From the UHGV virus genome UHGV-0356033: 45,424 nucleotides of DNA; one strand, 5' to 3'. Below are positions 12,717 to 37,383 of the stretch, piece by piece; the first letter of the stretch is position 1, and each line of letters begins with the position of its first letter. The notes under the pieces are model-generated. The model made no database searches, was not told the DNA's origin, and saw nothing but the letters and a program-made list of their open reading frames with translations. Made by a program: the position numbers and the translations under genes. The stretch is from a virus.

Positions 12717-13454
12717 TTAATAGCCCTGATAAATAATGTCGTCACGGTCTTTACGTAACTGGCAGTATGTTACGTCAGCACCGTTAGGGATTTGTACGCC
12801 AGCGTCTTCAAGATAAATAACACCAGTCTGATTACAGAAATAAAAAGACCACAAGTACGGATTGCCTTGACAACTGTTTTCACGATGATCGAAGGGCCAA
12901 TAGCCTCGATACAATTCGTCGTAATCACCGCGCTCGATACCAAAAGCAATCATTTCTTTTTCCCACAATCTGCTTTCGGCGTCGTAAATCGAAAACCAGA
13001 AACCGACGAGGTTCTTTGTCCGTTTAACGTTCATTAAGTCGTTATAAATGGGGTAGAGTGCTTTATTGAAACTTTCTAACATCTCTGGAGAGAGTAGAAA
13101 GTTCACGTAGTATTCTAGCCATTGATAAACGGCTTCCCAGACATCTTCAGAAGAGAAATGCTCGAATACGGCGTCATCACAATCGTAGTTATCGAAGACC
13201 CCTGAGAGATCTATTATGACGTCGCGAAGGTCAAAGTTTCGGTTGCTATTGACACCCTCAATAACTTCAGCGATGAGACGAGTAAAGACGTTTGTGCAGG
13301 CAGTCTGTGCGGTATAAAAGAATTCTCCTTGTACGGTTGACCACTTTGGGTCCTTCAAATGTTCATTGAAGTATTGTGGCCAAATTTTATAAAAGATTCC
13401 CTCGAACAACGAGGGATTGATACGTTGTAATTGAGGGACATAAACTTTTAGCAT
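12717..13454 (-). CDS. hypothetical protein (245 aa)
   Basis: ORF with ATG 13454-13452 and GGAG SD. Confidence 0.55.
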   Translation of the reverse strand: MLKVYVPQLQRINPSLFEGIFYKIWPQYFNEHLKDPKWSTVQGEFFYTAQTACTNVFTRLIAEVIEGVNSNRNFDLRDVIIDLSGVFDNYDCDDAVFEHFSSEDVWEAVYQWLEYYVNFLLSPEMLESFNKALYPIYNDLMNVKRTKNLVGFWFSIYDAESRLWEKEMIAFGIERGDYDELYRGYWPFDHRENSCQGNPYLWSFYFCNQTGVIYLEDAGVQIPNGADVTYCQLRKDRDDIIYQGY

Positions 13455-14159: not shown

Positions 14160-15673
14160 TCAAGCTCCTTATCCGTCAATATTCGTTTGTTTGAATAATA
14201 GCCACACCACAACCCATGATATTTTTCCCCGATATAGACCAAAGCGTATTCGATATACTGCCGTTCTGGACGCCGTACCGCCACGTAGAATCGTCCTTCT
14301 GGTTCTTTCATACGGTTGATTTCCGTACGCGTCGGTATGTCGATACCACGAGTAAGGATAGTTTTAACCTTGTTTTTACTACCAGGGATATGGATGGTTA
14401 CGTCAAAACCTTTATCTACGTTACGATAAAAATCTTTCTTCGGCTTACCTTTCTCATCGTAAAGCAGGTCAGTAATGTCGTTCATCACGACTGAGTTTTT
14501 CCCTTCCATGGCATCGCGTAACCAACCTGCAAGTTCATCACGAATCGTAATGCAGCGATAAGACAATAACGCGGGACGAAGAATTCGTGTAATCGAAAGA
14601 TCTTCAAACATCCATAGGTTTTTGTCTTCGCTAAAATGCATCCGATCGATAGGAATACCGTTAGCTGCGGCTTCTGCGAACTTCTTACGTTTTACGAATA
14701 AGTTAAATACAACGGCGATGGGATCAAATTGACGTAAACGGGGCACCCCTTCCCACGCTTTCGCAGAGTGGGTATTTACCAACTCGTATACGTTATCCCA
14801 TGGTTCTTTGGTAAACATTACGCAGAATTGTGCGTCTGGAATGTACTTACCAACGAAGACGATATCGTCCTTCTGTTTTGCATGGTTCCCACCGAACATG
14901 TAATAAAGTTTATTACCCTTAACTGTAACAGTGGGATGCGGTTCGTTCACCATCGGGTAACAGAACTTCGTAACACAGATATCGGGAAAAGCAGACAAAT
15001 TGACACCTTCACCAACAACTTCTGGTTGCTGTTCTTCCTCAGGCATCTCGTCTTTTGACCAATACGGTGTATAGTCTAAGCCCTCCCCTCGAGCCGAAAT
15101 ACTTGAACCCTTCCGTGCTAACTCGTCGGCACGTTCGTTTCCATAACGTCCAGAGTGGCCTTTAATCTTAAGGACACGAACACCTTTCCCTTCTTTCTTT
15201 AACCGCTGTTTAACCTCCCACATCCGTTGGATTAATTCCAAGTTCGCAATGGGTGTACCGTCCGCACGCCGCCATCCTCGTGCTGCCCAACCGTCAATCC
15301 AATCGTTATACGTGTTGACAACGTAAGATGCGTCGATATAGATAACATAGTTTTTAGCAACAAAAGGTGCGTGTTCGAAGACGGTCAAGAAAGCCACGAG
15401 TTCTGCAACGTCGGAGTGTGACATTTTTGGTACAGGCACAACACCGTCAATAAACTCCACGGTTTCTGGTAAAGGTGGAAGTTTTTCATCCTTGTTTATC
15501 TGGCGGTATCCTGACGTCGTAATCCCCTCGGGAATAGAGGGATGGCGATAAACCCGACCATCCTCAATCGTTTCACGATTAAATAAGTATCCATGAATCC
15601 CCGCTCCTGTACCGAGCGGGGAGGTCAAATGGCTACCATCCGTGTAAATTACTGCAACATCAACGTTCTTCAT
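14153..15673 (-). CDS. RNase HI-domain protein fused to an uncharacterised C-terminal domain of about 315 aa (506 aa)
   Basis: N-terminal 190 aa carry RNase HI hallmarks: IYTDGS...G.G, VAEL, IYIDAS, NDWIDGWAARGW..ADG.P..N.EL, KGHSGRYGNERADELARKGS (compare E. coli RnhA FTDGS, [43 protein letters not shown]). Confidence 0.7.
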   Translation of the reverse strand: MKNVDVAVIYTDGSHLTSPLGTGAGIHGYLFNRETIEDGRVYRHPSIPEGITTSGYRQINKDEKLPPLPETVEFIDGVVPVPKMSHSDVAELVAFLTVFEHAPFVAKNYVIYIDASYVVNTYNDWIDGWAARGWRRADGTPIANLELIQRMWEVKQRLKKEGKGVRVLKIKGHSGRYGNERADELARKGSSISARGEGLDYTPYWSKDEMPEEEQQPEVVGEGVNLSAFPDICVTKFCYPMVNEPHPTVTVKGNKLYYMFGGNHAKQKDDIVFVGKYIPDAQFCVMFTKEPWDNVYELVNTHSAKAWEGVPRLRQFDPIAVVFNLFVKRKKFAEAAANGIPIDRMHFSEDKNLWMFEDLSITRILRPALLSYRCITIRDELAGWLRDAMEGKNSVVMNDITDLLYDEKGKPKKDFYRNVDKGFDVTIHIPGSKNKVKTILTRGIDIPTRTEINRMKEPEGRFYVAVRRPERQYIEYALVYIGEKYHGLWCGYYSNKRILTDKELEC

Positions 15674-21129: not shown

Positions 21130-21609
21130 TTAAAATAATGGCAAGTTACGCCATTGACCTACGGAATAAAAAGCTTTTGGATGTTTACGGATATACGCTT
21201 TCGCTTCTTCTGGCAACCAACGGTCACCTACCAGTTTTTGTTGTGCAACAATTACCGCCATCAACAAATACGGGTTTTTCGCACCGGGGAACTTTGCATT
21301 GGTTTCTAGTGCAATATCCAATATTGACGACCAGCCCAGTAATTTATGCTGCGCCGGTAAACGTTCTTCAATATACATCAGCCATTTCATGATTTGTTTA
21401 GGCTTGTACGGACAGGTATAATTCGCCCAACACACCATGACGAACTTAATAGCCTTCGCAATCACCCATACAGGGACAGTCACGAAAAGGCAGAAAATGG
21501 CCAACTGCGAGGCGGGCGCTTCGACAAAAGTAAGCGCTACAAGAACCATACACAGTTCAAGTACCACAAACCAAAAACGCGTTGGATAACGCCAAATGAA
21601 TTTTATCAT
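21130..21609 (-). CDS. membrane protein (159 aa), two N-terminal hydrophobic helices
   Basis: Hydrophobic stretches FWFVVLELCMVLVALTFV and LAIFCLFVTVPVWVIAKAIKFVMV. Confidence 0.5.
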   Translation of the reverse strand: MIKFIWRYPTRFWFVVLELCMVLVALTFVEAPASQLAIFCLFVTVPVWVIAKAIKFVMVCWANYTCPYKPKQIMKWLMYIEERLPAQHKLLGWSSILDIALETNAKFPGAKNPYLLMAVIVAQQKLVGDRWLPEEAKAYIRKHPKAFYSVGQWRNLPLF

Positions 21610-21629
21610 AACTCTGTTCCTTTAGGGAA

Positions 21630-21670
21630 TGAAAATAAAAGTACCCCTTACTCCGTATAGGGTAAGGGGT
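21630..21670 (-). terminator. intrinsic terminator downstream of gene 21676..22185
   Basis: Stem 21643-21651/21662-21670; T-run on minus strand. Confidence 0.5.
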
Positions 21671-21675
21671 AGAGG

Positions 21676-22185
21676 TTAGAAGAACGGCTGGTTTGGAATG
21701 ACAGCGTACTCTAAAATGAACATGTGTTCTGGGGCGTCTTCTTTACGCCAGACTTTGTGTGTCGACACAAGTTTTTCCAGAATCGTTAAGAAACTACGTT
21801 GGCAGTATGTGTTTTCACCAAGCAGTAGATTTTGAAGTTCTACAGTAGCGTCCATATACGCCTGTTTAAAGACTAAATTACGGTTATACTGCCCGGTAAA
21901 ATTCCAAAGCAAGACTTTCCCTTCTTCGGTTTCTTTTACCGTTGGTCGTAAACCACAAATCCACAACAAGGCAAGGTTGACGTTCCAGTCAAACTCTAAA
22001 CCTTCTTCTTCGTCATCACCGAATGCTGTGGGTAAAGCATCGTAAAATTCGTGTTTCTCTGCGAATTCTTCATCCGACTTAATCTCGTCTTCGATACTGC
22101 TTCGGACGATACTGTAAACGTCTTTCGCGGTCAATTGTGCGGCTTTTGTAATGCCTTTATACCAATCGGTTACTACGATGCTCAA
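21676..22185 (-). CDS. hypothetical protein (169 aa), TTG start
   Basis: No ATG at 5' end; TTG 22185-22183 preceded by AGAGGAG SD with 7-nt spacer; overlaps TGA of upstream gene. Confidence 0.5.
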   Translation of the reverse strand: MSIVVTDWYKGITKAAQLTAKDVYSIVRSSIEDEIKSDEEFAEKHEFYDALPTAFGDDEEEGLEFDWNVNLALLWICGLRPTVKETEEGKVLLWNFTGQYNRNLVFKQAYMDATVELQNLLLGENTYCQRSFLTILEKLVSTHKVWRKEDAPEHMFILEYAVIPNQPFF

Positions 22186-22880
22186 AGGGTAACTCCTCTA
22201 TTGATTGGAAAACTCGTGTTTATCGTATCCCAAATTCTACTAACTTCCGCCAGTTGAATCTGACGTGGTGTTTTCTTCGCAAACGCAAGCTGACGTGGGG
22301 CCGAGCCCACAACAACAGGCACATCGATTTTCGCGCTATAGAACGCGGCGTCTTTCATAAAGCCTGCCATTTCTCGTTGTGCTGCTCGAGATTTGCTTTT
22401 GATTCGCGTGTGAGCGCCACTTTCACCCCAGTGGTAAGCTAACGCAATTTCAGCCATGGTGGGCTTGCGTTTGAGTCGTTTGGTTAACCCCTTCTCAAGA
22501 TGTTTAACATACGCAGTAGCCAGCAAAACAGCGTTACGCGGATTATACAAATCGGCGTTCTGACTAAGACCTAATTCTTTTCCATAAAGCTTTAGCAGAT
22601 TACGCTTGGTACTTGGAAGCATTTGTACCAGGCTATGTGCTCGTGAGCTTTTGTTGTAAGCCTTGGGATCAAAACGCGATTCACGATAAATCAGCGTAAT
22701 CATCAGCTTGGGATCAACGCCCTGCTTTCGTGAGATTTCCACAATTAACGGGCTGACTTTTTCGAACCGATGTTGGATTTGTGCAAACTCACGCTGATGC
22801 TTAGAATGTGGCGTTGACGTTGACGCCTGTGCGTTAAACGCGAAAAGTGTTACCAGTAAAAGGAAGAAGATACGAAACAT
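22182..22880 (-). CDS. secreted lytic transglycosylase, SLT domain (232 aa)
   Basis: Signal peptide MFRIFFLLLVTLFAFNAQA; SLT catalytic-region motif LIYRESRFDPKA...AHSLVQMLP; ATG 22880 has GGAGA SD (alternative ATG at 22907). Confidence 0.55.
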   Translation of the reverse strand: MFRIFFLLLVTLFAFNAQASTSTPHSKHQREFAQIQHRFEKVSPLIVEISRKQGVDPKLMITLIYRESRFDPKAYNKSSRAHSLVQMLPSTKRNLLKLYGKELGLSQNADLYNPRNAVLLATAYVKHLEKGLTKRLKRKPTMAEIALAYHWGESGAHTRIKSKSRAAQREMAGFMKDAAFYSAKIDVPVVVGSAPRQLAFAKKTPRQIQLAEVSRIWDTINTSFPINRGVTL

Positions 22881-22980
22881 TTTGTTTCTCCAGTTGGATT
22901 TATACATTTCCGTATTCCGTAAGACGAAATGACGGCGCGGACAGCTAATACTCCTTTGTTGTGTGCCCTAATGATAATAT

Positions 22981-23478
22981 CTATTTAAAAGAGTTTGGAA
23001 TTAATGACTCTGCTTCTTGGTACAACTTATCAGGTAAGTATAACGTGTAGCACTGCCTCCTCGGTTCAAGTTTTTTGTAAAGCCACAAAAAGATTTCTTG
23101 TCTTTCCCAGGAATCTAACCACCCATTTGCCATTCCCAGTGGAGGGATAGCAACGCTGGTATCCAGTTCCTCAACACAATCTGCTAATGCGGTAATGCCC
23201 GCAGTAACATAAGAAACCTGGGACTTTAAACGCCAATGTGTTTTCGTTGGGAGCAAGATGCACTTTTCATCAGGGTAAACGTAAACGCTTCCAATCTTAA
23301 TTTCGTCTTCGCGACACCGCTTACGGTAATCTTGATAAAGGTTGGGGTAGCGTTCACGGCACGCCAGTGCAATACCGCGACCCATCGCTCCTACGCAGTT
23401 AATGGTAACGACTTTATAGTCTTCGGGCGCATTAAAAAGATCGTTACCAATTTCAGATTCTTTACGTACCGTTAACAT
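22981..23478 (-). CDS. macro-domain-like protein (putative ADP-ribose binding or hydrolase), 165 aa
   Basis: VVTINCVGAMGRGIA resembles macro N-A-A-N...G-G-G-V-A motif and VAIPPLGMANGW resembles the macro F-P-x-I-S-x-G-x-x-G motif; start at 23478 chosen from domain architecture, weak SD. Confidence 0.4.
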   Translation of the reverse strand: MLTVRKESEIGNDLFNAPEDYKVVTINCVGAMGRGIALACRERYPNLYQDYRKRCREDEIKIGSVYVYPDEKCILLPTKTHWRLKSQVSYVTAGITALADCVEELDTSVAIPPLGMANGWLDSWERQEIFLWLYKKLEPRRQCYTLYLPDKLYQEAESLIPNSFK

Positions 23479-24202: not shown

Positions 24203-24646
24203 TTAGAATGTTTTGCTAAAATCGACCCACTCACGATCGCGTGAGTAAACCGCCTGATAGCCGCGTCGGATGAAATACTCTTTTGCTTCTTTACATTTCG
24301 CATACATGCCAGTAACAATTTCGCCGAAAACTTCATCAGCTGCAATTGCTTTGAAAATCTCTTTCATTACACCCCGTTGACGATAGTCTGGGAGCACGTA
24401 TACCGAACGTATCTTAAGTGAACCGTTACGATTCCGATAACTACAGTATCCTACCGCGACATCATCCTGATACACCAGAACTATGCAGTTACCTTCGATC
24501 AGCTGTCGCGCATTTAACTTCGGCACCGACATTTTGATTTTCAGTAACGTGGCCTGGTGGTCTAAGTAACGGTAGTGCAGTTTGAGTAAATCGGCAGCTT
24601 GTCGCTCACCGACTTTAGAAGATGCGTTCAACAAATAAATTTCCAT
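24203..24646 (-). CDS. GNAT-family N-acetyltransferase (147 aa)
   Basis: GNAT-like core VYVLPDYRQRGVMKEIFKAIAA and C-terminal YFIRRGYQAV; ATG 24646 with AAGG SD. Confidence 0.5.
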   Translation of the reverse strand: MEIYLLNASSKVGERQAADLLKLHYRYLDHQATLLKIKMSVPKLNARQLIEGNCIVLVYQDDVAVGYCSYRNRNGSLKIRSVYVLPDYRQRGVMKEIFKAIAADEVFGEIVTGMYAKCKEAKEYFIRRGYQAVYSRDREWVDFSKTF

Positions 24647-24677
24647 TTGCAAACCTTAGAGACGCAAAAAAGTAAAA

Positions 24678-24806
24678 TTAAAACCAACGCGCGATGACGA
24701 AAGCCGCAGCGGCTAATATGGCTGTGGTGATTATCAATCCACCCCATGAAAGTTCCGCGTCGTATAGTGCGGATATCGCTACATTCGTAGCGTTTATCGT
24801 GGTCAT
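24678..24806 (-). CDS. small membrane peptide (42 aa)
   Basis: Hand-translated: MTTINATNVAISALYDAELSWGGLIITTAILAAAAFVIARWF; AGGAG SD 6 nt upstream of ATG 24806; too short for ORF track. Confidence 0.35.
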   Translation of the reverse strand: MTTINATNVAISALYDAELSWGGLIITTAILAAAAFVIARWF

Positions 24807-24863
24807 TTTCTGCTCCTGTCAATACCCTCATACCGGAGGGTATCTTCTGGATTATCTGGGTGG

Positions 24864-24962
24864 TTAATCTTCGAACGCCCAACGGTGACGTTTAATCAGC
24901 CAGTTTAAACCTTTACCAATTAACCACAACGAGCCAAGTGTTAACAGAACCCCTACAACCAT
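24864..24962 (-). CDS. small membrane peptide (32 aa)
   Basis: Hand-translated: MVVGVLLTLGSLWLIGKGLNWLIKRHRWAFED; AGGAGAGGG SD upstream of ATG 24962; too short for ORF track. Confidence 0.3.
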   Translation of the reverse strand: MVVGVLLTLGSLWLIGKGLNWLIKRHRWAFED

Positions 24963-24972
24963 ATTCCCTCTC

Positions 24973-25158
24973 CTAATTCCGCCATTCGCATTCGCGTTGA
25001 CGCCAAATTGAACCCCATGATAGTTTAATCAGATAAGATGAAACTACCCATAAAATCATCACCACACAAAACATGACATAAAGAACCGCTAGTATGGACA
25101 TGAAGCCAAACCCTGCCGCATCCACAATACGACGGAACCAATCAGTTTGCATAAACAA
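24973..25158 (-). CDS. small membrane protein (about 59-61 aa)
   Basis: Hydrophobic core FGFMSILAVLYVMFCVVMILWVVSSYLI; TTG 25158 with GAAGGAG SD 6 nt upstream (or ATG 25152); overlaps 3' end of ATPase gene. Confidence 0.4.
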   Translation of the reverse strand: MFMQTDWFRRIVDAAGFGFMSILAVLYVMFCVVMILWVVSSYLIKLSWGSIWRQRECEWRN

Positions 25159-27646
25159 TTTTTACTCCTTCGTTATACACCGCAGGCAATGTCACCCCTT
25201 CCGGTTCGATGACACAGTACGATGCTTCATTAAGTTTAGAATGAACCTCGGCTTCGTGGGAGACTACCAACAGTTGAGAAAATTCTCCCGAGTTTGCTAA
25301 CGTTTTAATAAAACCGACCAGGTTGTTACGGTGCTCCTCATCCATGCCTTCCGAAGGCTCATCCAAAAGCAACGGAAACTGATGCAACTTCAGCGCTTTG
25401 TACGCAGTCAGCCTGAACATCAGATTAAATATCGCACGCTGCGCCTTAGACCCTTTACGCACGTCAGGAACAGGCTCAGGATGCGTTTTTAGCTGGACAG
25501 GAAAAGTATAATCCAAATCGCCGTCAGTGAGGTCACAAGGCATAACGCGCATGGGGTACGTCCAGACCTGTTCGATATAACGCGTCATTAACTCTGTGAT
25601 TCTAACGATAGCGTTGTAAAAATACTTTCTAAGTACACCCTTTTCTGGCGAGAAGGCTTGAATCATCAGTTTGTTATTGAACTGCTGGGCTTGTAAGTCA
25701 GCAAGTTCGCGTTCCAAACTGTTGAGCTGATTCAATTCATTTTCCATCTGACGATAACGTTCGCGTGCGGTTGTAAAAGCATCCAGCTTCCCTTCTCGAG
25801 CACGTAAGAGTTCCTCGACGACCGTATTTGTCAACGTAACCTTAACATCACTCTCTAACCGTTCGAATAACGCACTGAAATCATCTACAGCACGTTTAAC
25901 ATTCACCAGATAGGTAAGTGTCGTGTTAGCCAGTTCGTGCTCTCTACGACGCATTGAGAGCATCTCTGTGGCTTTACCTAATCGTGACTGTTGAAAAGCA
26001 ATTTTCTGTTGTAAAGCACCATCGACGTTACCAACGGCCGCTACGGCATCCTGCCATTCTTTTTCCGCCTTCACTAACCGTTGTCGGGTTTCATGGTACT
26101 CAATAGCAGAGTACAACTCACCGTCAAACGCTGCGCATAGACTCCCGAACTGCTCGCGTGATTCTGTGAAAACGTTACGTTCTTGCAAACGCTTAAAGAA
26201 CATGCTCAATACCGGGTCCTTTGAATACGTCAGCACAATCTCACGAACCTGCCGCATATAAGTTACATCAGATTCTAACTCAACACGATCGCGTAATAGG
26301 GCCTCTAACTGCGTTTGCAGTTCCGTGCGCTGCTGCTGTTGTCCGCGAATCGAAGACTCAAGTTCAGGTAAAGAACGTGTAACACCAGGCCGAAACTTAA
26401 ACCGGCACTGCGGACAATCCACTTCCGCTGTTTCTAAGTAGTGATTACGTTCGTGATTTAAATTCTGTAAAACGTTCTCCACTCGCTGGAGTCTATCCCG
26501 CAACCCTGCGGTTTTTTGATCCATCACCAGAAGCCGTTCTTCCAAAACATTGAGTTTTTCAGTTGAATGAATTGCGTCCAGTGTTGTTCCTAACCGTTGC
26601 CCCCAGACACGCGCATCGGTAGCCGCACGAAGTTGGTCTAAATTGACGTTGTCGTTAAATAGACCCGGAAAGAGATGCTCGGTGTCCCATTTGGTAAGTA
26701 ACTCACGTAAACGCGCCAATGTATTCTTGAGACCTTCGTGATTCCGCATCAGGTAGTCTTGTCGTGTCGACTCATCCATCAATAACGACAAGTCTTTATT
26801 CAACATCGATACCTCTGTTTCAGTAGACACGACAGCTTCGCGGGCCGTCGCTTCGTTTTGTCGCGCGGCCAGTATCTGTTCATCAGTAGGCAGTCCACCA
26901 CGATGTTGTAATATTGCGTCGATGGTTGGGCCCAAGCTGTTTAATAACGCTTGGATTGTTTCGATGGTGACGGCACGATTTAATCCTGGCAACTGTTCGA
27001 TTTCTCGGTTCAGTTCACGTAAATCCGATTCCAAACCTTTTAATCTCGTCGCCAACTGCTGCCGTTCTTCCTCGTTCTCAATAACACGCGTCCGCAATTC
27101 GGCGATTTTACGGCTGGTGATTTCAATACCCCCATTTAAGGCAGTAAGGTTTTTACGTAAACGTTGATAAAACCCTAACGCGTAGGTGAGGTCAGAGGTA
27201 CTTAAACGGTAAAACCACTTACGACGCAGTTCCGTTCCTGCATCCGTTAAAAGCACTTCTCCGTTCAGTAGTTCTTTAATCTCTTTTGTAATGCCTGTGA
27301 TTTCTTCAACACGGGAGTTGTAGACTTTCGCATTACCTTGCTCGACGATCTTTGCCCCCGTGGTCAAGTTCTCAATATCACAAACCAGTGAGTTCCCTTT
27401 ACGGGCAACTTTGAAACGATAGCGTTGATCGCCAACTAAACAGTAGTTCGTGTAAGAACCGCCGTCTCTGAATTCAGTTTTAGCCGGTGCTAAGGGTAAG
27501 AACACAGACAGTAGACTGGTTTTCCCGCAGCCGTTCCCACCCAGGATAATTGTTGTTGGAGACTGGATAGTGAAATCGAAAGTTTCAATTTCATGTAACC
27601 CCATCCCCGTAAAACCTTTGAGTATAATGCGTTCAACTTTTAGCAT
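25142..27646 (-). CDS. Rad50/SbcC-family (SMC-like) ATPase with coiled coil and CxxC zinc hook (834 aa)
   Basis: Walker A GGNGCGKTS near N-terminus; long coiled-coil middle with CPQC; C-terminal signature-like GSKAQRA, Walker B LLLDEPSEGMD, H-loop VVSHEA; start set at ATG 27646 (GGAGG SD) rather than track 27721. Confidence 0.6.
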   Translation of the reverse strand: MLKVERIILKGFTGMGLHEIETFDFTIQSPTTIILGGNGCGKTSLLSVFLPLAPAKTEFRDGGSYTNYCLVGDQRYRFKVARKGNSLVCDIENLTTGAKIVEQGNAKVYNSRVEEITGITKEIKELLNGEVLLTDAGTELRRKWFYRLSTSDLTYALGFYQRLRKNLTALNGGIEITSRKIAELRTRVIENEEERQQLATRLKGLESDLRELNREIEQLPGLNRAVTIETIQALLNSLGPTIDAILQHRGGLPTDEQILAARQNEATAREAVVSTETEVSMLNKDLSLLMDESTRQDYLMRNHEGLKNTLARLRELLTKWDTEHLFPGLFNDNVNLDQLRAATDARVWGQRLGTTLDAIHSTEKLNVLEERLLVMDQKTAGLRDRLQRVENVLQNLNHERNHYLETAEVDCPQCRFKFRPGVTRSLPELESSIRGQQQQRTELQTQLEALLRDRVELESDVTYMRQVREIVLTYSKDPVLSMFFKRLQERNVFTESREQFGSLCAAFDGELYSAIEYHETRQRLVKAEKEWQDAVAAVGNVDGALQQKIAFQQSRLGKATEMLSMRRREHELANTTLTYLVNVKRAVDDFSALFERLESDVKVTLTNTVVEELLRAREGKLDAFTTARERYRQMENELNQLNSLERELADLQAQQFNNKLMIQAFSPEKGVLRKYFYNAIVRITELMTRYIEQVWTYPMRVMPCDLTDGDLDYTFPVQLKTHPEPVPDVRKGSKAQRAIFNLMFRLTAYKALKLHQFPLLLDEPSEGMDEEHRNNLVGFIKTLANSGEFSQLLVVSHEAEVHSKLNEASYCVIEPEGVTLPAVYNEGVKIVYAN

Positions 27647-27676
27647 ACCCACCTCCATAAAGACGGAGTGTGGTGT

Positions 27677-27719
27677 AAAAAGAAAAAAATAAAGAAAGGG
27701 AGAACCCGAAGGTTCTCCC
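27677..27719 (-). terminator. intrinsic terminator downstream of gene 27725..28333
   Basis: Stem 27698-27706/27711-27719 (GGGAGAACC/GGTTCTCCC) with CGAA loop; long T-run on minus strand. Confidence 0.6.
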
Positions 27720-27724
27720 AAACG

Positions 27725-28933: not shown

Positions 28934-29323
28934 TCAATGATCTAATTCGATAGCACCAGCCATCTTGCCCCGTTCTTCGATAACGATCAGATAACGGTCG
29001 CGTGATTTGCTTTTAGCGAGAGTTAAGACAACAGTAGGGTCGCACGTTTTTGTGGTGATTGGAAGAACCTCTTGTGCGACGGAATCGAGCAGAAAGTAAT
29101 AACCTGCGGGACACATTGTTCCACCATCAGCTTTTACCAGAATATAGCGCCCGTCTGCGCCGACTTCTTGGCAGATTGTTTCACCGACTTCACAAACTTC
29201 AAACCCCGGAGGATTGTACTGGTAATCGGTATTGTTGTTTGGGGTTAGCAGTAAATCGTTAACGTGAGTAGATGCTGCTACACTCAGGGAGAAGAAGAAT
29301 GCTAAAACGCAGACGAGACGCAT
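28934..29323 (-). CDS. small secreted Cys-containing protein (129 aa)
   Basis: Signal peptide MRLVCVLAFFFSLSVAAS; AAGGAG SD; several Cys in mature part. Confidence 0.55.
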   Translation of the reverse strand: MRLVCVLAFFFSLSVAASTHVNDLLLTPNNNTDYQYNPPGFEVCEVGETICQEVGADGRYILVKADGGTMCPAGYYFLLDSVAQEVLPITTKTCDPTVVLTLAKSKSRDRYLIVIEERGKMAGAIELDH

Positions 29324-29333
29324 GAGTTACTCC

Positions 29334-29744
29334 TTAAATTTTAAGTTTATCCATAGCCACAACGATAGGTTTTTCCGAAGTGTCTAATATCCCTACCATT
29401 GGCACACCATCTACGACTTTGAAGAATGGTTTGTTATTGCCTGAGCACAACTGTTTGTCGTTGTATTCGAGACGTTGAGCCTTCCACGTTTCGAGGTTGA
29501 GTACGGACATCGGGCTGTCGTAGCACCAGGCACCGCCTTGCTCAACGATGAATACGTATCTGCTACCTTTGTATTTAAACAGACTCTTCGCCTGGCAGTA
29601 CAACCCGTCAATTTCCGTACAATAGAAATCATCGGTGCTATTGACGTATTTAATACCGTCTGGTAACTGTGTTGTTTTTGCTGTAGCGTTAACAGAGAAC
29701 AGAACAGCAATTGCAATGAGAAGAGTATTGATGATAGTTTTCAT
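29334..29744 (-). CDS. small secreted Cys-containing protein (136 aa)
   Basis: Signal peptide MKTIINTLLIAIAVLFSVNATA; AAGGA SD. Confidence 0.55.
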   Translation of the reverse strand: MKTIINTLLIAIAVLFSVNATAKTTQLPDGIKYVNSTDDFYCTEIDGLYCQAKSLFKYKGSRYVFIVEQGGAWCYDSPMSVLNLETWKAQRLEYNDKQLCSGNNKPFFKVVDGVPMVGILDTSEKPIVVAMDKLKI

Positions 29745-29755
29745 GATAGAAGTCC

Positions 29756-30241
29756 TTAGTATTTAGATTGTTCTGCGTATTTCTTAACCAGGTAAGCGAA
29801 TTCAGCAACACCGATATCACCGAACCAAATCAGATAACCGGGGTCGATGTTGTAGTAATAACCGACAAGTTTCTTGGTGTGTGGGTTGTATAGCGTTACG
29901 ATATATTCCCAGCCACAAGCGTTAGCTTTACAACCGCCGCTTTCAATCCAGATTTTGTTGTTGATGTTTACCGGATACATGTTACCTCCAGGGCCATCCA
30001 TGTAACCTTTAGAGCCGAACATACCATCCAGTCCCACGCGGTCTAGTGTTTTATCAACAACGGCTTTAAACGACTTATCGGTATCGTACAAGTCGTTGAT
30101 GTTTGGGCACGCATTTGGCTGACCTTCCCAAGCGTTTCCATCACAGGTAAGCAATTCGTCTACGGAGGCCGCATCTACAGTTGGTGTGACACCGATAAAC
30201 AAGAAAACCAGAAAGAACATCAGTGTATGTAAACGTTTCAT
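29756..30241 (-). CDS. small secreted Cys-containing protein (161 aa)
   Basis: Signal peptide MKRLHTLMFFLVFLFIGVTPTVDA; AAGGAG SD. Confidence 0.55.
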   Translation of the reverse strand: MKRLHTLMFFLVFLFIGVTPTVDAASVDELLTCDGNAWEGQPNACPNINDLYDTDKSFKAVVDKTLDRVGLDGMFGSKGYMDGPGGNMYPVNINNKIWIESGGCKANACGWEYIVTLYNPHTKKLVGYYYNIDPGYLIWFGDIGVAEFAYLVKKYAEQSKY

Positions 30242-30259
30242 TGTAACTACTCCTTTAGA

Positions 30260-30652
30260 TTATTCGGCAGGACGATTTAAGGTAACGCGCCCGATTAATT
30301 CGGCGTTGTGAAAGAAGTCCACAGCGGTATAGTTACCAACTGATAGCGGATGGATACTAACTGACATTACTTTTGGTTGCTCGCAGGCAATATCCGTCAG
30401 ACGTTGGTAGACTTGTGCACGGGTGTCAGCAATGAGTAATCCCGTACACGTTTCACCACGCACTAAACGATAAACTTGCAGTTTACCGAAACTGCGCATT
30501 AACGTAGGCGTCTCATCCGGGTTGATAATCGGTGAGTCAGGAGCCGGTTCGTAATAGCGGACATCCGAATCACCGAAAGCATAAGTACCGGTAATACCGA
30601 CTGCACAGAAAATAATGATAGTATAAAGTATAGTTCTGATATTCATTTTCAC
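30260..30652 (-). CDS. small secreted protein (130 aa)
   Basis: N-terminal hydrophobic signal MKMNIRTILYTIIIFCAVGITGTYA; start (GTG 30652 or ATG 30646) uncertain. Confidence 0.45.
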   Translation of the reverse strand: MKMNIRTILYTIIIFCAVGITGTYAFGDSDVRYYEPAPDSPIINPDETPTLMRSFGKLQVYRLVRGETCTGLLIADTRAQVYQRLTDIACEQPKVMSVSIHPLSVGNYTAVDFFHNAELIGRVTLNRPAE

Positions 30653-37323: not shown

Positions 37324-37383
37324 GAAAAAAAAAAACGTGCTACTCCTACCCTCTTAGAGGGTAGGAGGTTACTTTATTTTTTT
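37324..37383. terminator. bidirectional intrinsic terminator
   Basis: A10 run, then palindrome CCTACCCTCT/AGAGGGTAGG (37345-37365), then TTACTTTATTTTTTT; serves DUF1471 gene and convergent gene 37374..38636. Confidence 0.65.

Follow-up and report, generated by a model that had tools for sequence, protein, structure and literature searches.

Three conserved micro-genes for predicted single-pass membrane proteins at the tail of an SbcC-like gene in an uncultivated SPN3US-like jumbo phage

The window analyzed here is a stretch of 45,424 nucleotides of the virus genome UHGV-0356033. It represents about one fifth of the genome of its source, an uncultivated SPN3US/Erskinevirus-like jumbo phage of about 225 kb. 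When the locus and 25 kb of the window were compared by megablast with 50,697 phage records, no close cultured relative emerged. Between the genes for an SbcC-like SMC ATPase and a GNAT acetyltransferase lie three leftward tandem ORFs, termed P1, P2, and P3 (Table 1), as a previous sequence-only reading of this DNA had reported. That two of them fall below a 60-aa cutoff, as was also reported, is true but trivial. The start of P1 overlaps the SbcC stop codon by 17 nt, and the micro-gene chain therefore begins inside the 3′ end of SbcC. The gap between P1 and P2 is 10 nt, and the P1 TAG stop (24973–24975) covers the first two bases of the P2 AGGAG; in the related loci L011 and L012 and in SPN3US, the P1 stop and the P2 start overlap as ATGA. 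The GNAT gene is the conserved downstream edge of the variable micro-gene module and is syntenic in all relatives.

Table 1. Positions of the genes and signals at the SbcC–GNAT locus and of the putative endolysin gene in the window
Feature	Coordinates	Strand	Details
P1	24973..25158	minus	61 aa from TTG 25158; alternative ATG 25152 gives 59 aa
P2	24864..24962	minus	32 aa; ATG start
P3	24678..24806	minus	42 aa; ATG start at 24806
SD of P1, AAGGAG	25165-25170	minus	6 nt upstream of TTG; within the SbcC 3′ end
SD of P2, AGGAGAGGG	24966..24974	minus	AGGAG at 24970-24974; 7-nt spacer to ATG
SD of P3, AGGAG	24813-24817	minus	6-nt spacer to ATG 24806
SbcC-like SMC ATPase gene	25142..27721	minus	mechanical ORF; stop 25142-25144; probable true start an internal ATG near 27646-27658; phrog_77 SbcC-like, E=2.8e-91
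GNAT acetyltransferase gene	24203..24646	minus	Pfam Acetyltransf_1/7/10; phrog_3810
SLT putative endolysin gene	22182..22907	same strand as P1–P3	Sec-type signal peptide
P2–P3 intercistronic RNA hairpin	24822..24843	minus	inverted repeat ATACCCTC-cggtat-GAGGGTAT

Comparative sequence data confirm P1, P2, and P3 as real protein-coding genes, the translation of which is predicted. An AGGAG-type Shine–Dalgarno (SD) site precedes each of the three ORFs, and each ORF encodes one hydrophobic helix, with Kyte–Doolittle 19-residue maxima of transmembrane (TM) grade (P1, 2.82; P2, 1.78; P3, 2.12), both in agreement with the sequence-only reading. Among the 308 ORFs of 28–70 aa in the six frames of the window, 18 contain a TM-grade segment and 10 have an SD-like motif; the two features occur together in three, which are exactly P1, P2, and P3. 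Frame conservation in relatives, which had been set beforehand as the refuting test, left the claim standing: in a comparison over 11 related loci, the P1–P3 frames are intact in IMG/VR relatives with about 99% and about 89% SbcC identity and also in more distant genera. Relative to the relatives at about 89%, dN/dS (Nei–Gojobori) is 0.32–0.35 for P1, 0.27–0.38 for P2, and 0.13–0.16 for P3. Shifted-frame controls gave values of about 0.9 or more and contain stops, with the exception of one P2 frame, which has a dN/dS of 0.45 and also contains stops. The synteny is repeated on independent metagenome contigs, and an identical P1 is found on 188 contigs and a relative of P3 on 565.

Two features of the locus, the very short length of the ORFs (32–61 aa) and the TTG start of P1, would fit a reading in which P1–P3 are untranslated chance open frames in an intergenic spacer. 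However, frames conserved across genera with dN/dS well below 1 and with alternative frames broken, correct SD spacing, the restriction of coincident TM and SD features to P1–P3, and profile-search E-values as low as 1e-22 all argue against this reading, which is extremely improbable and effectively refuted by the conservation data. Conservation, purifying selection, ribosome-binding sites, and helices alike back the claim that these are genuine tandem micro-genes encoding tiny membrane peptides, and the case illustrates that comparative data suffice for confident calling of jumbo-phage genes of fewer than 60 codons.

P1 has homologues in SPN3US (gp187), phiEaH2 (AFQ96656), and Asesino (gp208). 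The TTG codon of P1 is conserved, the nearby ATG is replaced by ACG in loci L011–L014, and TTG, not ATG, is most likely the start. The AAGGAG site of P1 has at most one substitution in loci L009–L014, in which P1 overlaps SbcC likewise. P1 matches phrog_16515 (E=1.2e-4), and a profile search recovered 32 clusters, of which those on long contigs are from jumbo-phage contigs of about 220–246 kb. The uncharged core of P1 comprises residues 14–44 and is followed by a basic C-terminal tail with a conserved CEWR motif. A helical hairpin (two TM segments) was considered for the 31-residue hydrophobic stretch and was rejected, because the AlphaFold2 model is a single continuous helix spanning residues 3–60 (pLDDT 82).

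In P2, a hydrophobic helix at the N-terminus precedes a basic amphipathic tail (KRHRWAFED), and no other member of the module is as widely conserved. It matches phrog_13448 (E=6.6e-14), and tblastn gave syntenic matches in about 17 genomes of Erskine-, Machina-, and Seoulvirus. Seventeen clusters were found among 5.8 billion proteins searched, and an exhaustive HMMER search of 1.84 billion proteins gave only nine representative clusters. Residues W13, W21, and A29 are nearly invariant.

P3 has a polar, slightly acidic N-terminal portion of 20 aa and a C-terminal TM helix that ends in RWF. Its homologue is SPN3US gp189, and it is conserved in loci L009–L012 and in SPN3US. A tblastn search of phages with P3 gave no match, and homologues surfaced only via synteny and a large protein database, in which a profile search gave 10 clusters (none named and none with Pfam domains), with Seoulvirus proteins at E-values of 1e-12 to 1e-15. 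P3 of the window has no direct PHROG match, and SPN3US gp189 matches phrog_29196 at 7.7e-33. An 84-aa ORF (24628..24882) overlaps P3 in another frame and is judged to be non-coding, as it contains a stop in L011 and has a dN/dS of 1.74; this spurious ORF hides P3 from length-based gene callers. P3 was also considered as a paralogue of the ‘TQGWF’ peptides of relatives, since both end in WF, and this was rejected at an hhalign probability of 1%.

The interval between SbcC and GNAT holds a variable chain of three to six small genes, with as many as five small membrane genes in head-to-tail overlap in relatives. P1 and P2 form an invariant core in the window clade, Seoulvirus, Erskinevirus, and Machinavirus-like phages, whereas P3, a 2-TM protein, the ‘TQGWF’ peptide, and a basic protein are present or absent depending on the genus. 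In SPN3US, the interval also holds the 2-TM protein (gp188 family), the ‘TQGWF’ peptide, and the basic protein, all three of which have been lost from the window clade. On gene content and synteny, P1–P3 are best described as the remnant of a variable small-gene chain. SPN3US gp187 and gp189 and the P2 homologues phiEaH2 AFQ96657 and SPLA3 WNT47996 occupy the same SbcC–GNAT position and match P1–P3 in length, in the single hydrophobic helix, and in the overlap of P1 with the SbcC stop, although sequence identity is only about 30–60%.

The sequence-only reading had described such peptides as systematically under-annotated, which is only partly true. P1 and P2 match PHROG families directly and P3 does so via gp189, and proteins of all three kinds are already annotated (P1 and P3 as SPN3US gp187 and gp189; P2 in phiEaH2, SPLA3, and Caitlin). 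The SPN3US record lacks P2, and the three families (phrog_16515, phrog_13448, and phrog_29196) are all labeled ‘unknown function’. By similarity, P1–P3 are new members of existing families that are listed in relatives as hypothetical proteins. Searches of Pfam, NCBIfam, and PADLOC at E≤10 and permissive PDB sequence searches with P1–P3 gave noise only. For now, P1–P3 rank among the conserved hypothetical proteins that large phage genomes commonly encode, and the annotation can be improved at three points: the TTG start of P1, the absence of P2 from the SPN3US record, and the spurious 84-aa ORF over P3.

P1–P3 are probably not the holin of this phage, although holin or antiholin modulators were among the functions proposed by the sequence-only reading. 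Its other proposals, membrane-depolarizing toxins and inhibitors of membrane-bound host factors, are likewise generic, and the present data neither favor nor disfavor them. Like holins, they combine a TM helix with a charged hydrophilic terminus (P1 and P2 have basic C-terminal tails; P3 has almost no tail after the helix). No holin, lysis, or toxin family was matched in Pfam, PHROGs, NCBIfam, or PADLOC, and the PHROG matches obtained are to families of ‘unknown function’. P1–P3 lie outside a lysis cassette and are chained to SbcC, not to the endolysin gene; the gene for the putative endolysin, a protein with a Sec signal peptide of its own, is four genes distant and has a separate 2-TM protein gene nearby. 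Within the family, a lysis cassette has been defined experimentally only for phiKZ, in which gp141, gp141.1, gp142, gp143, and gp144 are contiguous and grouped compactly around the endolysin gene (PMC12894885). The catalytic domain of the SLT putative endolysin is homologous to phiKZ gp144, which, unlike the protein encoded here, is not Sec-exported. P1–P3 have no similarity to gp142, the characterized chimallivirus holin, a 131-aa class III protein that adjoins the endolysin (PMC12894885).

A related reading is that at least one of P1–P3 times lysis, as a holin- or pinholin-like depolarizer or as an antiholin acting on the Sec-exported transglycosylase encoded 1.8 kb downstream. In its favor, P1–P3 are small single-TM proteins with charged C-termini (P1 especially), and the SLT gene is on the same strand and, throughout the clade, never more than a few kb downstream of SbcC. 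The signal peptide of SLT means that a membrane trigger, not an export hole, would be needed, and tblastn with phiKZ gp141–143 detected no phiKZ-type spanin or holin homologue in the window, which covers only about one fifth of the genome. P1 also begins with M-F-M, which superficially resembles a dual-start motif (TTG-TTT-ATG); this candidate was rejected, as the second start is not conserved. Timing of lysis by P1–P3 is distinctly unlikely, given the lack of a match to lysis families and the separation of P3 from the SLT gene by GNAT, two genes of unknown function, and a macro-domain gene. In addition, a 2-TM protein of 159 aa encoded two genes beyond SLT is a better-placed holin candidate, module content differs between genera, and Vibrio phage pVp-JHP1101 and Klebsiella phage Miami keep the SbcC…SLT synteny without small TM peptides.

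The overlap of P1 with SbcC fits a further rival reading. P1, possibly with P2, could be a membrane partner or anchor of the SbcC(D) nuclease that is co-translated with it and tethers or regulates it at the inner membrane or at the early infection vesicle. The 17-nt overlap, with the SD site inside SbcC, is conserved in the window clade and Erskinevirus, including Asesino and phiEaH2; the overlap is 11 nt in SPN3US, and Machinavirus-like phages have a gap of a few nt. Every genus of the clade retains P1 and P2 beside SbcC, and the conserved CEWR motif lies in the predicted cytoplasmic basic tail of P1. SPN3US gp187 was noted by Thomas et al. (2016) as a TM protein adjoining the essential SbcC, with a parallel to T4 gp47.1 (PMC5105663); the SbcC homologue of SPN3US, gp186, is essential as judged from amber mutants (PMC5105663), and orf165 of phiKZ is without transposon insertions (PMC12676376). 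Unrelated small TM ORFs are also located directly 3′ of SbcC in Derbicusvirus, PhiPA3, and Moabite.

T4 gp47.1 is the closest parallel to P1 in arrangement. It is a predicted membrane protein of 46 aa, the gene of which overlaps by 4 nt the gene for a subunit of an SbcCD-type nuclease (gene 47, an SbcD homologue). However, 47.1 is upstream of its SbcD-like gene, whereas P1 is downstream of an SbcC-like gene; gp47.1 has two hydrophobic segments, whereas P1 has one long helix; and T4 has no phage nucleus. P1–P3 were also compared with T4 gp47.1, with the Pf3 coat protein, and with the small TM ORFs that follow SbcC in Derbicusvirus, PhiPA3, and Moabite; every score was below 10 bits, and homology was rejected. 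The P1, P2, and P3 profiles gave at most 0.5 bits against T4 47.1.

Further observations make a role of P1 as an SbcC partner unlikely. The association is not general among phages with this SbcC: a small TM ORF after SbcC is absent in eight sampled chimallivirus lineages (phiKZ-like phages, Ea35-70, Vibrio pVp-JHP1101, LucasX, Aphrodite1, RP12, Miami, and EL). Overlapping genes are common in dense phage genomes, and the anchoring role in T4 is itself only a suggestion. For relatives such as SPN3US, replication is reported to take place in a lipid-free nucleus with a protein wall, which makes an integral inner-membrane anchor topologically awkward. A literature search found no paper on the subcellular location of jumbo-phage SbcC. 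A stronger form of the idea is quite improbable: in these nucleus-forming phages, SbcC would be co-produced with inner-membrane micro-proteins dedicated to it (core P1 plus P2), which would tether or gate it at a lipid membrane, either the inner membrane or that of the early-infection vesicle. If true, DNA would undergo a membrane-linked processing step beyond the protein-walled nucleus, and the long-standing T4 gp47.1 conjecture would acquire a function.

The reading preferred here, which is tentative, is that P1–P3 are single-pass inner-membrane micro-proteins encoded at the tail of the SbcC operon, with a putative accessory role and probably not as holin. P1–P3 would be expressed as the tail of that operon, and their translational chaining makes joint production probable and joint action in the inner membrane possible. 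Basic residues of the P1–P3 family members concentrate on the C-terminal side, and from the positive-inside rule alone the proteins are predicted to be inserted N-out/C-in with short basic tails in the cytoplasm, a prediction that is weak for P3. Possible accessory roles at the host inner membrane include a block to superinfection and the modulation of, or protection against, a membrane-bound host factor, and P1 may additionally or alternatively be the membrane partner of SbcC. Variable gene content, a narrow phylogenetic range (the families are confined to one jumbo-phage clade), and the lack of a link to lysis genes together suggest an accessory role at the host membrane. In phiKZ, 185 of the 210 genes shorter than 500 bp tolerate transposon insertions (PMC12676376).

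The case for an accessory role proceeds by elimination and analogy, and two observations weigh against it. No genus of the clade lacks P1 or P2 even though SbcC identity drops to about 55%; such retention exceeds that of many accessory genes and would be just as consistent with a core partnership with SbcC. The putative endolysin, which is always within 2–4 kb downstream in the clade, would, as a Sec-exported enzyme, need a membrane-depolarizing trigger, which leaves some probability for a lysis-timing role.

The analogy is with T4 Imm, a small membrane protein. Like P1–P3, it is encoded among DNA-metabolism genes and outside the lysis cassette, imm being located between genes 42 and 43, and it is similar to them in size class, likely dispensability, and clade-restricted distribution. 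Imm is larger than P1–P3 (83 aa versus 32–61 aa) and has two TM segments. Comparison of P1–P3 with Imm, Sp, and other exclusion families gave no Pfam match at E≤10 (the Imm family included) and no functional PHROG match. Searches for type I toxin-like families (Hok, TisB, Ldr, and Ibs) in Pfam and NCBIfam at E≤10, and for defense families with PADLOC, likewise gave no match. Whichever role applies, SPN3US-like phages have a variable membrane micro-protein module physically chained to the gene for an essential recombination nuclease, and the amber-mutant genetics of SPN3US offers direct access to the SbcC-partner, lysis, and exclusion hypotheses.

The P2–P3 intercistronic region contains an inverted repeat predicted to fold into an RNA hairpin with a 9-bp stem (−16.7 kcal/mol; z=−2.7), which occupies the position of the 2-TM gene in relatives. 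Loci L011 and L012 have a hairpin at the same site, in which the CCCTCC/GGAGGG core is shared and the flanking stem has diverged, with a 4-nt loop and UGUUUUA following the stem.

P1, P2 and P3, the three leftward micro-genes between the SbcC-like ATPase gene and the GNAT gene, each have an AGGAG-type Shine-Dalgarno (SD) motif 6–7 nt 5′ of the start and one predicted hydrophobic stretch of transmembrane (TM) grade (Kyte-Doolittle 19-residue maxima of 2.82, 1.78 and 2.12, respectively), as the sequence-only reading had described for 24678–25158. Among all 308 ORFs of 28–70 aa in the six frames of the window, used as a chance control, a TM-grade stretch is present in 18 and an SD-like motif in 10; the three that combine both features are P1, P2 and P3 only. 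P1 most likely starts at the TTG at 25158, because in the junction alignment the related loci L011–L014 carry ACG in place of the ATG at 25152, whereas the TTG and the AAGGAG six bases 5′ of it are conserved. The mechanical SbcC ORF also opens with a TTG, and its homologues have ~836 aa with a conserved N-terminus from MLKVERI; the true SbcC start is probably an internal ATG near 27646–27658.

Coordinates of the micro-genes and of neighboring features in the window
Feature	Coordinates	Strand	Description
P1	24973..25158	minus	61 aa, TTG start (most likely)
P2	24864..24962	minus	32 aa
P3	24678..24806	minus	42 aa
SbcC-like SMC ATPase gene	stop 25142–25144	minus	flanks P1 side of interval
SbcC mechanical ORF	25142–27721	minus	859 aa, TTG start
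GNAT acetyltransferase gene	24203..24646	minus	flanks P3 side of interval
84-aa ORF	24628..24882	minus	other frame; over end of P2, all of P3 and GNAT start
RNA hairpin between P2 and P3	24822–24843	minus	9-bp stem, z = −2.7 (predicted fold)
CCCTC-N(3-12)-GAGGG, copy 1	13399–13415		within ORF
CCCTC-N(3-12)-GAGGG, copy 2	15525–15541		within ORF
CCCTC-N(3-12)-GAGGG, copy 3	24825–24840		intergenic, P2–P3 hairpin
CCCTC-N(3-12)-GAGGG, copy 4	37349–37361		intergenic, gap of two convergent ORFs
Macro-domain protein	22981–23478	minus	Pfam Macro, 4e-6
SLT lytic transglycosylase	22182..22907	minus	241 aa
Candidate lysis module	21130–22907	minus	SLT; soluble 169-aa protein (4-nt overlap with SLT); 159-aa protein with two N-terminal TM segments
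Four consecutive genes	28934–30652	minus	129, 136, 161 and 130 aa; 5′ of SbcC with two genes between

Megablast against 50,697 deposited phage genomes detects no close relative of the window, and the best deposited genomes show ~74% nucleotide identity over ~8% of a 25-kb query. In more sensitive searches the window falls in a clade of ~220–250 kb jumbo phages of enterobacteria, where its neighbors are Erwinia Erskinevirus (Asesino, phiEaH2), Salmonella Seoulvirus (SPN3US) and Machinavirus-like phages. Uncultivated relatives in IMG/VR include two loci at ~99% SbcC identity (L009, L010), two at ~89% (L011, L012) and a graded series beyond; related contigs include IMGVR_UViG_3300029126_000001 (225,000 bp) and IMGVR_UViG_3300045988_113438 (220,786 bp). 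Identical or near-identical proteins, labeled Escherichia coli, Shigella flexneri or Salmonella at NCBI, are found on hundreds of assembled contigs. The phage looks like a member of a jumbo-phage genus of enterobacteria that is common yet undescribed and is sister to Erskinevirus and Seoulvirus.

Loss of the reading frames in relatives, which the sequence-only reading had named as grounds for discarding the genes, is not observed: all three frames are intact in L009–L012. In Nei-Gojobori comparisons of the window with the ~89% relatives, dN/dS is 0.32–0.35 for P1, 0.27–0.38 for P2 and 0.13–0.16 for P3 (flanking GNAT gene, 0.06), whereas the two shifted frames of the same alignments contain stops and give ~0.9 or higher, except for one P2 shifted frame (0.45). 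This conservation indicates that P1, P2 and P3 are real genes. The overlapping 84-aa ORF is not conserved, being broken in L011/L012 with a stop in L011 and a dN/dS of 1.74; an ORF track that selects by length would show it in place of the shorter P3. Between the window and L009, P2 has 87.5% nucleotide identity versus ~95% in the flanks, with five amino-acid changes in 32 residues (dN/dS 0.44), and in L010, P2 is identical to that of the window but P1 differs (I11F, V12M). These patterns suggest mosaic exchange or faster evolution inside the micro-gene module.

P1 matches phrog_16515 and has homologues in SPN3US (gp187), Asesino (gp208) and phiEaH2 (AFQ96656); P2 matches phrog_13448 (E=6.6e-14) and has homologues in phiEaH2 (AFQ96657), SPLA3 (WNT47996) and Caitlin (gp198); and the P3 homologue, SPN3US gp189, belongs to phrog_29196. 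Profile searches of 5.8 billion proteins yield 32, 17 and 10 clusters for P1, P2 and P3, respectively, none with a name or Pfam domain, and the long contigs among the matches are jumbo-phage-sized. An exhaustive HMMER search with the P2 profile over 1.84 billion representatives finds only nine clusters. Searches of P1–P3 against Pfam, NCBIfam, PADLOC and PDB at permissive thresholds give nothing meaningful. The three proteins add members to families that already exist, are classed as of unknown function and are on record as hypothetical proteins. The SPN3US record (JN641803; loci L015/L020) lacks annotation for the 34-aa P2 homologue at about 171588–171692 (MIEGIVLTGIALWLIRGAWGWIIRTKGWAFHGKT), which is annotated in SPLA3 and SPFM17, and for a 35-aa “TQGWF” peptide after gp189.

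The AlphaFold2 model of P1, built on the family alignment, is a single continuous helix (residues 3–60, mean pLDDT 82) and not a helical hairpin; residues 14–44 form an uncharged core, and the C-tail has a conserved CEWR motif. P2 opens with a hydrophobic helix and continues as a basic amphipathic tail; its residues W13, W21 and A29 hardly vary. In P3 the N-terminal 20 residues are polar and slightly acidic, and the C-terminal helix closes with RWF. Across family members, Lys and Arg are concentrated C-terminally, which by the positive-inside rule favors an N-out/C-in orientation for all three, though weakly for P3.

In all relatives, the SbcC–GNAT interval contains a chain of small genes. In SPN3US it comprises P1 (63 aa), P2 (34), a 2-TM protein (67, gp188), P3 (43, gp189), the TQGWF peptide (35) and a basic protein of ~60–90 aa, and each of the first five overlaps the preceding gene by 4–17 nt. 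Erskinevirus has the same set minus P3, Machinavirus-like phages have divergent versions of those five genes, locus L017 has only P1, P2 and the basic protein, and the window clade has only P1, P2 and P3. As P1 and P2 are present in every clade's interval while the others differ, P1 and P2 are the constant core. The overlap between the P1 start and the SbcC stop measures 17 nt in Erskinevirus and the window clade and 11 nt in SPN3US; the P1 TAG stop in the window reaches into the 5′ end of the P2 SD, and the P1/P2 overlap in L011/L012 and SPN3US is ATGA.

This coupling raises the question of whether P1, perhaps with P2, is a membrane partner of SbcC. SbcC (gp186) is essential in SPN3US and is followed by gp187, a 63-aa TM protein; on this point, earlier work cited T4 gp47.1 as a proposed membrane anchor for gp46/47 (Thomas et al., 2016; PMC5105663). 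The most specific hypothesis, a membrane link to SbcC, is already published for gp187. Like P1, T4 gp47.1 is a tiny predicted membrane protein (46 aa) whose gene overlaps gene 47 of the SbcCD-type nuclease, by 4 nt (confirmed here) rather than 17 nt. Among about 15 chimallivirus lineages surveyed, a small TM ORF lies directly 3′ of SbcC in the SPN3US-like superclade, Derbicusvirus, PhiPA3 and Moabite, but not in phiKZ-like phages, Ea35-70, pVp-JHP1101, LucasX, Aphrodite1, RP12, Miami or EL, so the coupling is recurrent but not general; the ORFs of Derbicusvirus, PhiPA3 and Moabite have no detectable homology to P1–P3. The SPN3US group belongs to the phiKZ-like jumbo phages, which are reported to form a nucleus with a protein wall and, early in infection, a lipid vesicle, and a lipid-embedded anchor is awkward with replication inside a lipid-free protein nucleus. 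A literature search for the subcellular location of jumbo-phage SbcC found nothing. An SbcC partnership is, on balance, unlikely.

A role in lysis timing would concern the SLT protein, labeled “putative endolysin” in several relatives, with a catalytic domain homologous to phiKZ gp144. Its N-terminus is a classical Sec signal peptide (...LFAFNAQA/STSTP; AQA/S cleavage site), so Sec appears to export the endolysin of the window's clade, in contrast to phiKZ gp144; the SLT of Klebsiella phage Miami also has a signal peptide. As a Sec-exported endolysin would still require a membrane trigger, such a role retains a small probability. However, four unrelated genes (GNAT, two unknown and macro-domain) separate P3 from SLT, whereas the lysis cassette of phiKZ, the only one defined by experiment in this phage family, is contiguous (i-spanin, o-spanin, 131-aa class III holin, cytoplasmic regulator and endolysin; PMC12894885). 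In addition, Vibrio pVp-JHP1101 and Klebsiella Miami have SbcC near an SLT gene without small membrane peptides, and an M-F-M dual start in P1 is rejected, as the second start is not conserved. A holin role for P1–P3 is hence unlikely; of the sequence-only reading, the membrane micro-genes stand, whereas the roles it suggested are generic, with the holin version disfavored.

P1–P3 are co-oriented, translationally chained genes for predicted single-helix membrane micro-proteins, found in one clade and unlinked to lysis genes. This combination, with a P1–P2 core and a variable remainder, leads us to favor, tentatively and at somewhat below even confidence, accessory inner-membrane proteins that would be made with SbcC and have the inner membrane of the host as target or site of action, possibly in superinfection exclusion or in modulating, or protecting from, a membrane-bound host factor. 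By analogy, the tolerance of transposon insertions in 185 of the 210 phiKZ genes <500 bp (PMC12676376) and the placement of the T4 membrane immunity gene imm among replication genes would support an accessory role. The main value lies in better annotation; in addition, the connection of an essential nuclease gene to a membrane micro-protein module can be tested, as this phage group has a genetic system.

The predicted hairpin between P2 and P3 occupies the exact place of the 2-TM gene of other genera. L011/L012 have a hairpin at the same place, with an identical CCCTCC/GGAGGG core, a diverged flanking stem and a 4-nt loop, followed by UGUUUUA (a short U-run). The outer stem touches the P3 SD, and the element could serve as attenuator or terminator, or in RNA stability. 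The palindrome CCCTC-N(3-12)-GAGGG occurs four times in the window, versus 0.15 expected from shuffles.

The macro-domain and GNAT genes lie between the micro-genes and SLT. The order SbcC ... macro ... SLT is shared with the distant Vibrio phage pVp-JHP1101, and the neighborhood is thus old; perhaps only the enterobacterial clade has the micro-gene module. Each of the four consecutive genes 5′ of SbcC encodes an N-terminal hydrophobic segment (residues ~3–26; signal anchor or signal peptide). Three of the four match PHROGs of unknown function and the other has no PHROG match; together they may form a paralogous array of exported or membrane proteins.
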